Part shown: positions 8,741 through 11,893 of the stretch, piece by piece
How the letters are laid out: the number at the start of each line of letters is the position of its first letter
Numbering within the stretch: the stretch's first letter is position 1
Virus genome (UHGV): UHGV-0043381
Length of the DNA stretch: 12,991 bases
Strand: one strand, 5' to 3'
DNA from: a virus
Made by a program: the position numbers and the translations under genes
Notes under the pieces: generated by a model
Databases searched by the model: none
What the model was told of the DNA's origin: nothing
Seen by the model: only the letters and a program-made list of their open reading frames with translations

Positions 8741-9103
8741 TCATTCATTCCCCATTTCGGTGATGGTCAGTTCCAGCCTCCCACCTTTGGTAACAGGCAT
8801 CTTCACAACGCGGTAATCAACGACCTGAGCATCATCCAGCCAGAAACCTGCTTTAGTGAGTGCGTCAAAAGCGGCTTTTTGCAGATTATCCAGGTCACGG
8901 CGACGGCGATCCGGCATGTGGCACTCAATGCGGATTTTCACAGGCATAGTCAGGCCGATATCCAGCATTGCGTTTTTAATGATTCGGGCGACGTTATCGC
9001 GGTATGCCTGCCCCTCTGCGCTGACGTGCGTGCGCCCGCGATTATGGCGGTAATAGCGATTATTACTCGGAGGCCAGGGTAATGTGATGCTGTAGGTATT
9101 CAC
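8741..9103 (-). CDS. rusA: Holliday junction resolvase RusA, 120 aa
   Basis: [51 protein letters not shown]...[44 protein letters not shown]... matches E. coli RusA; GTG start at 9103 preceded by aagg. Confidence 0.93.
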
Positions 9104-9132: not shown

Positions 9133-9666
9133 ATCATCAATGAAAACCAGCAGTTTGATGGCATGGACTTTGAGCAGGACAATGAATCCTGCACATGCCG
9201 GATTTACCGCAAAGACCGCAATCATCCGATCTGCGTTACCGAGTGGATGGATGAATGCCGCCGCGAACCATTCAAAACCCGCGAAGGCAGAGAAATCACG
9301 GGGCCGTGGCAGTCGCATCCCAAACGGATGTTACGGCATAAAGCCATGATTCAGTGTGCCCGTCTCGCCTTCGGATTTGCTGGTATCTATGACAAGGATG
9401 AAGCCGAGCGCATTGTCGAAAATACCGCATACACTGCAGAACGTCAGCCGGAACGCGACATCACTCCGGTTAACGATGAAACCATGCAGGAGATTAACAC
9501 TCTGCTGATTGCCCTGGATAAAACATGGGATGACGACTTATTGCCGCTCTGTTCCCAGATATTTCGCCGCGACATTCGCGCATCGTCAGAACTGACACAG
9601 GCCGAAGCAGTGAAAGCTCTTGGATTCCTGAAACAGAAAGCCACTGAGCAGAAGGTGGCTGCATGA
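9133..9666 (+). pseudogene. bet: Lambda Bet (Red-beta recombinase), 5'-truncated; roughly the N-terminal 85 codons missing
   Basis: From about 9133 the frame reads IINENQQFDGMDFEQDNESCTCRIYRKDRNHPICVTEWMDECRREPFKTREGREITGPW...KATEQKVAA, colinear with the C-terminal two thirds of lambda Bet (261 aa) as I recall it. Upstream of about 9130 similarity stops and the frame closes at TGA 9085-9087. No start or promoter context. Confidence 0.85.
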
Positions 9667-10343
9667 CACCGGACATTATCCTGCAGCGTACCGGAATCGA
9701 CGTGAGAGCTGTCGAACAGGGGGATGATGCGTGGCACAAATTACGGCTCGGCGTCATCACCGCTTCAGAAGTTCACAATGTGATAGCAAAACCCCGCTCC
9801 GGAAAAAAGTGGCCTGACATGAAAATGTCCTACTTCCACACCCTGCTGGCTGAGGTTTGCACCGGTGTGGCTCCGGAAGTTAATGCTAAGGCGCTGGCAT
9901 GGGGAAAACAGTACGAGAACGACGCCAGAACTCTGTTTGAATTCACTTCCGGCGTGAATGTTACTGAATCCCCGATCATCTATCGCGACGAAAGTATGCG
10001 TACCGCCTGCTCTCCCGATGGTTTATGCAGTGACGGCAATGGCCTTGAGCTGAAATGCCCGTTTACCTCCCGGGATTTCATGAAGTTCCGGCTCGGTGGT
10101 TTCGAGGCCATAAAGTCGGCTTACATGGCCCAGGTGCAGTACAGCATGTGGGTGACACGAAAAGATGCCTGGTACTTTGCCAACTATGACCCGCGTATGA
10201 AGCGTGAAGGCCTGCATTATGTCGTGGTTGAGCGGGATGAAAAGTACATGGCGAATTTTGACGAGATGGTGCCGGAGTTCATCGAAAAAATGGACGTGGC
10301 ACTGGCTGAAATTGGTTTTGTATTTGGGGAGCAATGGCGATGA
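9663..10343 (+). CDS. exo: Lambda exonuclease (Red-alpha, Exo), intact, 226 aa
   Basis: [94 protein letters not shown]... matches lambda Exo at full length; ATG overlaps the bet stop (ATGA). Confidence 0.93.
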
Positions 10344-10750
10344 CGCATCCTCACGATAATATCCGGGTAGGCGCGATCACTTTCATCTACTCCGTTACCG
10401 TCACCGAGGCGTTAGAACTTGATACTGCCAAGAATGGTTACATCCTCCTGGTTCAGGACGCAGAGCCAAACTTCGATATAAATGGCAACTCTCCGGTAAC
10501 TCCGGATGGTTGGGTTATAGTGCCGAAGAAACTAACCGCTGAGAACGGCGCTAAGGGTGTGCTATCCGGTGAATTTTCAGAAACTACGTTTATAAGCTGC
10601 CCGGAATGCTTTGGTGATGATGATTGCGAAACTTGTGACGGCAGCGGAAGAATCGAAATCAAGGTTCCAGTCAGTTGGACAACTATCAAAACTATTTGGG
10701 CTAAAGGGTGTGAGTACTTTTCAATAGTAGCACCGCAGCAAGATGGGTGA
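10334..10750 (+). CDS. Hypothetical protein, 138 aa, with C-terminal CxxC-x5-CxxCxGxG zinc-ribbon-like motif; translationally coupled to exo
   Basis: ATG at 10334 preceded by gggga and overlapping the exo 3' end by 10 nt. Motif ...[21 protein letters not shown]..., where CxxCxGxG is the DnaJ cysteine-rich repeat signature. The N-terminus [19 protein letters not shown] may resemble the start of a lambda exo-adjacent small ORF, but I cannot confirm it. Confidence 0.6.
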
Positions 10751-10876
10751 TGAAAACAAGTATTTATAACTTAAAAGCATTAAAAAATCGCTTATAGATC
10801 AAAAGAAATCTACGTCAAATATTACTATATTTCAATGTGTTATAATTACCCCGTCCATAAAATGGGGGGACACAAA

Positions 10877-11119
10877 ATGTTCAAACGCTGCATCACCAAG
10901 TGTGGAAGCACACCTGACATCCAAGCTTTTATTAATGAAGATGGTAAGCTTGTTGTTGAGAGGAGTGGTCCTTTTATTAGCAAACAACTTATCATTACCT
11001 CTCCAGCGGAGATGGCCGGGGAATGGATAGTTTCTGAACCAGAGGAGTTGCACATCCCGCTTCCTTATGGCCCTCAGGGACTGATTTATAACCGTTATGT
11101 TCAGAAGGAGGCGGGTTGA
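10877..11119 (+). CDS. Hypothetical small protein, 80 aa from the SD-supported ATG (94 aa from ATG 10835)
   Basis: ORF-track frame 10835..11119. ATG at 10877 has gggggga 7 nt upstream; a perfect TATAAT at 10841-10846 in an AT-rich gap suggests its own promoter, in which case 10835 would be inside the leader. No family recognised (contains CITKC). Confidence 0.5.
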   Translation: MFKRCITKCGSTPDIQAFINEDGKLVVERSGPFISKQLIITSPAEMAGEWIVSEPEELHIPLPYGPQGLIYNRYVQKEAG

Positions 11120-11398
11120 CAATGTCAGGCATAACATCGCCGAGAAATCGAAAGAAAAACAGAACAAGGTAAACGTTGACCTTGCAGCATCAGGCATGGA
11201 GTACAGAGAGCGCCTTAACATACCTGTTATCACTGAGCAGGTATCATGAGAGCAACCTGAGCACTCACGCGAGTATTTCATGGAGCGCATCAGATACTAT
11301 CGCGAGCAGTCGTTAAACATGCCCAAGGGAAGCAACCCATGGTATATCGATATGGATGAACAGAACGCCAAGAAGTAAACGCAATTTGAACGAATGCG

Positions 11399-11426
11399 AA
11401 CCCGCCGAGTGCGGGTTTTCTTTTAT
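11399..11426 (+). terminator. Intrinsic terminator (7-bp stem aacccgc/gcgggtt, loop cgagt, T-run)
   Basis: Read directly at 11399-11417, followed by ttcttttatctg; about 20 nt after the stop of the small frame ending at 11378. Confidence 0.55.
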
Positions 11427-11624
11427 CTGAACTCGCTACGGCGAGTTTTGTTTTATGGCGATGATAAATGCACTTCCGAGTTACAGGTGAATAGAATGGA
11501 GAACCATTCAACAGAGTTATCGAAGCCGAGAACATCAGCGACTGCTATGACCACTGGATGCTGTGGGCGCAGATAGCACATGCAGACGTAACCAATATTC
11601 GAATTGAAGAACTGAAAGAACACC

Positions 11625-11652
11625 AAGCCGCCTGATGGCGGTTTTTTCTTGC
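11625..11652 (+). terminator. Intrinsic terminator 25 nt upstream of the xis start
   Basis: Stem aagccgcc (11625-11632) / ggcggttt (11637-11644) with one G-U pair, loop tgat, then a T-run tttttctt. Confidence 0.55.
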
Positions 11653-11674: not shown

Positions 11675-11893
11675 ATGTACTTGACACTTCAGGAGTGGAA
11701 CGCTCGCCAGCGACGCCCAAGAAGCCTTGAAACAGTTCGTCGATGGGTGCGCGAATGCAGGATATTCCCTCCTCCGGTTAAGGATGGAAGAGAATATCTG
11801 TTCCACGAATCAGCGGTAAAGGTTGACTTAAATCGACCAGTAACAGGTAGCCTTTTGAAGAGGATCAGAAATGGGAAGAAGGCGAAGTCATGA
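11675..11893 (+). CDS. xis: Excisionase Xis (lambda), 72 aa
   Basis: MYLTLQEWNARQRRPRSLETVRRWVRECRIFPPPVKDGREYLFHESAVKVDLNRPVTGSLLKRIRNGKKAKS is essentially lambda Xis; SD ggag 8 nt upstream; 3' end overlaps int as in lambda. Confidence 0.93.
   Translation: MYLTLQEWNARQRRPRSLETVRRWVRECRIFPPPVKDGREYLFHESAVKVDLNRPVTGSLLKRIRNGKKAKS

Follow-up and report, generated by a model that had tools for sequence, protein, structure and literature searches.

The interrupted reading frame at positions 11097-11378 of the virus genome UHGV-0043381 is, with little room for doubt, a pseudogene: the non-functional remains of a hot/holE gene carried by a prophage. It lies in a stretch of 12,991 nucleotides, here called the window, which represents a lambdoid prophage inserted beside ybhC, at the attachment site of lambda. 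Theta is described as a non-essential third subunit of the Pol III core that stabilises the epsilon proofreading exonuclease (PMC2528190; PMC7556043; PMC13220808). The Hot protein of phage P1 can take the place of theta and stabilise epsilon and, according to the same sources, is expressed in lysogens as well as during the lytic cycle (PMC2528190; PMC7556043, citing Chikova and Schaaper 2005, 2007; PMC13220808). Two of them present the intact hot/holE product as a three-helix protein of about 85 amino acids that binds epsilon of the host DNA polymerase III (PMC2528190, PMC7556043). The action of Hot on epsilon has been assayed by dnaQ49 suppression, pull-down or NMR (work cited in PMC2528190).

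The original prediction offered three interpretations of this frame: a gene inactivated by an opal codon, two small peptides, or a leader peptide with an attenuator. It described the frame as open from 11085 to 11378 but for one TGA, and our translation agrees. Positions 11085-11381 encode FITVMFRRRRVDNVRHNIAEKSKEKQNKVNVDLAASGMEYRERLNIPVITEQVS, a stop, EQPEHSREYFMERIRYYREQSLNMPKGSNPWYIDMDEQNAKK and a second stop; the first of these is the single in-frame TGA at 11247-11249 and the second is the TAA at 11376-11378. The interrupted frame contains two ATG codons, of which 11097 opens a peptide of 50 amino acids and 11280 one of 32. Both peptide strings given for the two halves, and the ATG at 11280, were confirmed. 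Two of its features are these:

11097-11378, + strand: theta/Hot pseudogene frame, with a PF06440 match across both halves and the same coordinates as in the RefSeq PGAP annotation
11247-11249, + strand: opal stop TGA in place of the invariant Arg43, one C-to-T transition from CGA

What did this frame encode? When the stop is read as Arg, the conceptual product of 93 amino acids matches the Pfam family DNA_pol3_theta (PF06440) with 100.9 bits and an E-value of 3.1e-29, well above the curated cutoff of 34.6, and covers profile positions 2-67 of 70. The N-terminal half by itself scores 56 bits against the profile. The rise to 100.9 bits for the whole means that the second half continues this domain without a change of frame. 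Solved structures give the same identity: P1 Hot (1se7/2ido) is the best match, over residues 13-85 of the repaired translation (E 2.7e-29), and E. coli theta (1du2) matches residues 12-76 (E 5.7e-16). In a distant blastn search of phage genomes, 11133-11377 matches hot of phage P1 and, in HK639 and in phages of Klebsiella, Enterobacter and Salmonella, genes that carry the annotation 'DNA polymerase III theta subunit'. The original prediction had named non-conservation of the frame, as in a non-coding spacer, as the outcome that would overturn it. A spacer with a long frame open by chance has the presence of a stop codon in its favour and nothing else; given the Pfam E-value and the 442 homologous proteins found in about 5.8 billion protein clusters, we discard this reading altogether.

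The relic can be placed among its known relatives. Like P1 Hot, it belongs to PF06440 and is carried by a temperate phage of enterobacteria. The two genes share about 72% DNA identity; P1 hot, however, stands among the P1 late genes, whereas the window copy is found between exo and xis, in the accessory region of a lambdoid prophage, and is broken by a 1-nt deletion and by the TGA at Arg43. E. coli theta (HolE) shares the motifs VNVDLAA-G and REQPEH with the window copy. HolE is chromosomal and has 76 amino acids, whereas the window copy is of the phage/prophage Hot-like branch of about 85 amino acids, and is inactivated. Intact prophage theta genes are known, for example, from E. coli H5 (WP_016247099.1), phage HK639, Salmonella phage SEN34 and temperate phages of Klebsiella. 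They resemble the window copy in family, in their accessory early/nin location and in an architecture of about 85 amino acids beginning MSxHNIA. Unlike the window copy, they are uninterrupted and under purifying selection (pN/pS 0.12-0.19).

The identity of the codon lost at 11247-11249 is clear from the homologues. Residue conservation was counted in an alignment of 118 intact homologues, and all 118 have Arg at the position of the TGA, inside the motif A-R-E-Q-P-E where helix 2 ends; in the window a stop takes the place of this invariant residue. The codon is CGA in the sister alleles L008, L009 and L013, and CGC or CGT in the intact L005 and L006. Since the sisters within the clade have CGA, the TGA is a single C-to-T transition. 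One allele, L004, retains the ancestral GCA (Ala) just before the TGA, so the nonsense mutation is older than the neighbouring Ala-to-Ser change. Of the three interpretations offered originally, it is the opal pseudogene that these observations bear out.

A TGA in an otherwise open frame might instead be decoded. On this account, read-through of the UGA, programmed or leaky and inserting Trp, or its recoding as selenocysteine, would give small, regulated amounts of a theta-like protein of full length. In favour of this, UGA is the leakiest of the E. coli stop codons, the half downstream of it is still in frame and recognisably theta, and one ENA gene call (P0001) has W at the stop position. 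That W, however, comes from a genetic-code-4 miscall of TGA. Recoded UGA codons are expected to align with Cys or Sec in homologues, to be followed by a conserved RNA element and to be under selection, and the window codon does not answer this description. The homologous position is an invariant Arg, not Cys or Sec; the two z scores for a SECIS-like or read-through hairpin downstream of the UGA, -1.4 and -0.1, do not differ from shuffled sequence; and in L003 the TGA is followed at once by a TAG. The frame also lacks a usable start. Read-through or recoding is therefore, in our judgement, highly improbable, and the evidence again favours a pseudogene.

P0001 was also tried, and rejected, as an intact allele. 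It is a protein of 93 amino acids from a public metagenome (L007, 493-774 of ENA contig k141_77261), and the DNA has the TGA. The short contig had been called with TGA as Trp, and under table 11 the gene does not translate to the query. P0001 is thus a database artefact that mimics an intact allele.

An uninterrupted homologue in phages had been proposed as a check on the prediction. Intact theta genes do exist there, and by blastn they are distant only. Among the matches listed, the intact homologues have 84-104 amino acids, mostly 85, and start with M-S-x-[H/W/F]-N-I-A. After the miscalled P0001 and a frameshifted protein, P0002, the best protein match is 79% identical to the repaired window translation, and the search of about 5.8 billion protein clusters found no intact close relative. 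Among 5426 complete E. coli genomes searched with a query repaired to CGA, 91 carry the allele and not one of these carriers matches at 100% identity, so the exact CGA version of the window allele was not found in this set. Megablast against sequenced phages gave no near match for 10750-11412; the allele is in no isolated phage of that collection.

The TGA is not the only lesion. The start region holds the following features:

11105-11111, + strand: ancestral theta Shine-Dalgarno sequence AAGGAGG, read in the sequence, with GAGG conserved in intact homologues
11122-11172, + strand: canonical ATG, where the homologues begin (M-S-x-[H/W/F]-N-I-A), now out of frame and opening a 16-codon ORF, MSGITSPRNRKKNRTR and a stop
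11129-11130, + strand: site of a 1-nt deletion, GGC CAT to GGCAT, from DNA alignments

The window reads ATGTCAGGC-ATAAC where the intact L005 has ATGTCTAGCCATAAC: one base has gone after canonical codon 3, and the distance from the ATG to the invariant AAC ATC codons (N-I) is 11 nt in the window versus 12. As a result of this loss, the canonical Shine-Dalgarno sequence and ATG give only the 16-codon out-of-frame ORF. The window thus lacks what an intact member of the family has, an uninterrupted ORF of about 76-87 amino acids from this Shine-Dalgarno sequence and ATG. The deletion is present in every clade member that has the 5' end (the window, L001-L004, L007-L011 and L013), and absent from the intact L005, L006 and L014 in the DNA alignment; in L012, IS100 has removed the part of the gene where it would lie. 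By comparison of these alleles, the deletion is the older of the two lesions in the window. The original prediction thus named the right kind of object, an opal pseudogene, but did not give the gene's identity, overlooked this older deletion and took 11097 as the start, which is not the ancestral one.

The ATG at 11097 does overlap the end of the upstream ORF (10877-11119), as predicted, by 23 nt. It has no Shine-Dalgarno sequence and no purine-rich tract upstream, and it encodes MFRRRRVDNVR, of which the first eight residues have no counterpart in 116 of 118 homologues. It is in the theta frame by accident and is not an ancestral start. Given the older frameshift near the true start, placing the start at 11097, as the annotation does, is an artefact of extending the ORF.

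How, then, did the gene come to its present state? In the original layout, orf80 would have been followed by the Shine-Dalgarno sequence and ATG, theta and two intrinsic terminators, the whole forming a small cassette of accessory genes in the exo-xis region. Loss of one base after codon 3 came first, and ribosomes initiating at the old site would now make the 16-residue out-of-frame peptide. In the lineage of the window, CGA (Arg43) then became TGA, and initiation at the ATG lacking a Shine-Dalgarno sequence at 11097 would end after 50 residues. The relic would persist as a hitch-hiker on the intact orf80 and the terminator module, a block that recombines among prophages.

The 50-residue product is the basis of a different reading, in which a fragment made from 11097 and comprising helices 1 and 2 is a working, shortened Hot that binds epsilon, perhaps as a modulator or a dominant negative. 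The fragment is certainly widespread. Its exact sequence occurs on 706 contigs, its 90% cluster has 29 members, each of 41-50 amino acids, and the allele is found in at least three chromosomal contexts; a working product would explain this wide spread. We nevertheless consider it very unlikely. The strong Shine-Dalgarno sequence serves the out-of-frame ATG at 11122, not 11097, and in several carriers an IS element or a deletion has taken away the 5' end of the gene. The N-terminal half is itself altered at near-invariant positions (V34M, A35E, K37R, A46T and A50S), and the sister alleles with CGA have been inactivated by other routes. Finally, helix 3 of the three-helix bundle is missing. AlphaFold places the helices of P0003, the closest intact relative, at residues 11-31, 38-44 and 47-64 (mean pLDDT 79.8), and Arg43 closes helix 2. 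Helix 3 is wholly downstream of the stop, so the stub lacks both it and the C-terminal tail; the window product is short of the complete three-helix fold as mapped from the P0003 model, not from a model of the stub itself. On this model the 50-residue stub would be predicted neither to fold nor to stabilise epsilon.

A related proposal is that the stub, made by ribosomes that start weakly at 11097 or re-initiate after orf80, or else a trace of protein from UGA read-through, docks on epsilon and subtly alters replication fidelity or epsilon stability in lysogens. Such activity would account for an allele carried by hundreds of E. coli contigs, in prophages of several backgrounds, and would make it a prophage-encoded modifier of host replication fidelity. 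We rate its chances as very slim, and return to the pseudogene, for which the close copies of the gene offer further evidence.

Those copies have decayed independently. In addition to the lesions of the window, the following were found:

L003: TAG directly after the TGA
L007: canonical ATG changed to AGG
L008, L009: 1-nt deletion near 11336, with the terminator read through to give the 154-residue P0002
L010: 5' truncation by IS3
L011: 5' truncation by deletion, with fusion to a Rad52 pseudogene
L012: 5' truncation by IS100
L013: 2-nt deletion near 11231

The frame therefore has what defines a pseudogene: homology to intact genes with at least one disabling lesion (two in the window, the start frameshift and the nonsense codon), and independent extra lesions in close copies (L003 and L007-L013).

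The pattern of substitution agrees. A dN/dS analysis across related prophages had been suggested along with the prediction. Between pairs of intact homologues pN/pS is 0.12-0.19, and it is 0.22-0.25 for the window or L008 against intact genes. Within the 82-codon core of the clade we count 13 substitution events, of which 3 are synonymous, 8 change the amino acid and 2 create a stop. A count of 10 or more non-synonymous events in 13 has a probability of 0.0015-0.05 under an omega of 0.12-0.25 and of 0.76 under neutrality; with only 13 events the test is small, and it is borderline at an omega of 0.25 (P = 0.05). Constraint thus appears relaxed in this small sample, and the substitutions fit neutral decay. 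The window product departs from the consensus of at least 90% at 13 positions; K37 and L57, both invariant, are among them, as are the near-invariant V34 and A35. As an internal control we used orf80, in which 7 of 11 substitutions are non-synonymous and 4 synonymous, too few to decide. Because the non-synonymous share is fairly high in orf80 as well, the contrast between it and the theta relic rests on the disabling lesions, not on dN/dS.

Downstream of the frame the original prediction had placed a strong terminator, and there are two:

11398-11428, + strand: intrinsic terminator 1, an 8-bp GC-rich stem followed by a T-run (-12.3 kcal/mol, z -2.46), conserved in Gifsy-1
11429-11455, + strand: intrinsic terminator 2, in tandem with terminator 1 (-11.9 kcal/mol, z -3.78)

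Terminator 1 begins 19 nt past the stop codon of the frame. A consensus scan for + strand hairpins with T-runs reports 11398-11418 and 11429-11448, and a third at 11625-11644; the terminator scan gave 7 sites versus 1.2 expected. The terminators outlast the gene. In Gifsy-1 and Gifsy-2 all that is left of a theta gene is its last ~40 nt (ending EQNTKK and a stop), together with the same tandem terminators, at 86% identity (L016, Gifsy-1, 1501-1607 against window 11343-11449), upstream of a dinI homologue. This theta remnant is an even more eroded relic. In Gifsy-1 the stem of terminator 2 has a compensatory change from U-A to C-G. Homology to lambda begins at 11413, inside terminator 1. These two comparisons indicate that the terminators, and not the ORF, are the conserved functional boundary.

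The remaining interpretations, two independent small proteins of 50 and 32 amino acids or a leader peptide with attenuation at the downstream terminators, draw on the tandem arrangement of two ATG-initiated ORFs upstream of a terminator and, for the two proteins, on the fact that the ORF of 32 amino acids is called in some assemblies. Yet the two ORFs correspond, in order, to successive parts of one PF06440 domain, and the ATG at 11280 is a conserved internal Met (M62 in window numbering) with no Shine-Dalgarno sequence before it. Attenuation calls for a short regulatory ORF that chooses between hairpins. The fold of 11379-11460 contains the two terminator hairpins only, with no alternative antiterminator, and the terminators are present without these ORFs in lambda, HK106 and Gifsy. 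We regard two peptides or a leader as extremely improbable, and neither of these two original interpretations is supported. An Rfam scan of the whole window at a permissive E-value returned nothing credible in 11097-11460. A known sRNA at the terminators was considered and rejected: the sole match, to rsmX, is below threshold (24 bits against a cutoff of 56) and is driven by the two terminator hairpins.

The third GC-rich hairpin, at 11621-11650 (-13.0 kcal/mol), has T-runs on the + strand and was scored on the - strand too. Lying between the orf55 relic described below and the start of xis at 11675, it could be a bidirectional terminator just upstream of xis.

If the theta frame is dead, why is it so common? 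That the TGA allele is common, nearly invariant and present in several prophage contexts does count against an inert relic, and its spread could in principle reflect selection rather than hitch-hiking. The neighbouring gene offers a simple account:

10877-11119, + strand: orf80, 80 amino acids, no Pfam match, intact in every allele that keeps orf80 whole

The exact orf80 protein occurs on at least 1000 contigs. Being intact and abundant, orf80 provides a simple hitch-hiking explanation for the abundance of the pseudogene beside it. The same orf80, pseudo-theta and terminator cassette is found elsewhere with other neighbours (torI-dsdC, torI with an MFS transporter gene, and torI with an integrase gene), and thus moves as a mosaic block. 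In the window the local order is bet', exo, an ORF of the DUF1317/zinc-finger type, orf80, pseudo-theta, the two terminators, orf55, xis and int, and the interval from exo to xis is recognised as variable and accessory in lambdoid phages (PMC3824215, PMC8614690). A gap of 2 nt separates the TGA stop of orf80 from the canonical theta ATG that follows, a spacing typical of translational coupling.

About 30 nt upstream of the orf80 ATG at 10877, within an AT-rich spacer, stands TGTTATAAT (10838-10846, + strand), a perfect extended -10. It was seen by reading only; the promoter scan found no two-hexamer sigma-70 site upstream on the + strand. This putative extended -10 suggests that orf80, theta and the terminators may once have been an autonomous, moron-like cassette.

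The prophage around the cassette is itself rearranged and defective. Its bet/RecT ORF (9163-9666) matches only profile positions 116-195 of 198 and is thus truncated at the N-terminus, and bet abuts an inverted rusA (8741-9103, - strand) and a Q/lysis/porin block. Directly downstream of the theta relic, the homologue of lambda orf55 (a 55-residue ORF between ea8.5 and xis), at 11468-11635 on the + strand, has TAG at 11492-11494 where relatives have TGG (Trp9), and PGAP records an 'internal stop' for it in the closest genome; it is a second nonsense pseudogene. The truncated bet, the inverted rusA junction and this TAG together identify the prophage as defective.

The pseudogene status of the theta frame is already known from public annotation, contrary to the expectation that these ORFs would be missed. 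Where complete E. coli genomes in RefSeq match 10750-11460 at 100% identity, they carry, at the interval equivalent to 11097-11378, a PGAP entry 'DNA polymerase III subunit theta', pseudo, with 'internal stop' (for example FORC64_RS27400, HF562_RS07655 and ACUYGU_RS16225, identical in sequence and coordinates). The 50-residue product has been deposited in GenBank and UniRef as 'DNA polymerase III subunit theta [Escherichia coli]'. The PGAP entries, however, record the internal stop only and do not note the frameshift at the canonical start. To the public annotation we add this older frameshift, the independent decay series in the sister alleles, and the persistence of the last theta codons and the tandem terminators as a module boundary in Gifsy and lambda-type phages. 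The result has little import beyond correct annotation: the 'interrupted ORF plus terminator' seen in the accessory region between exo and xis is hot/holE, a known accessory gene, in a dead copy, and no new regulatory device.

Two other ORFs of the window deserve mention. The ORF of 138 amino acids at 10334-10750 (+ strand) matches DUF1317 in its first 20 residues and has a C-terminal zinc-finger motif of the CxxCxGxG type. It looks like a fusion ORF, and some RefSeq genomes label it 'molecular chaperone DnaJ'. Near the other end of the window, the Rfam family IS009 (RF02111) matches at full length at 93-291 on the - strand (225 bits, E 7.7e-56). The match is wholly within a tail-fibre-assembly ORF (50-634, - strand; Pfam Caudo_TAP, E 1e-43), and the IS009 'sRNA' family may simply be coding sequence of a prophage tfa gene.
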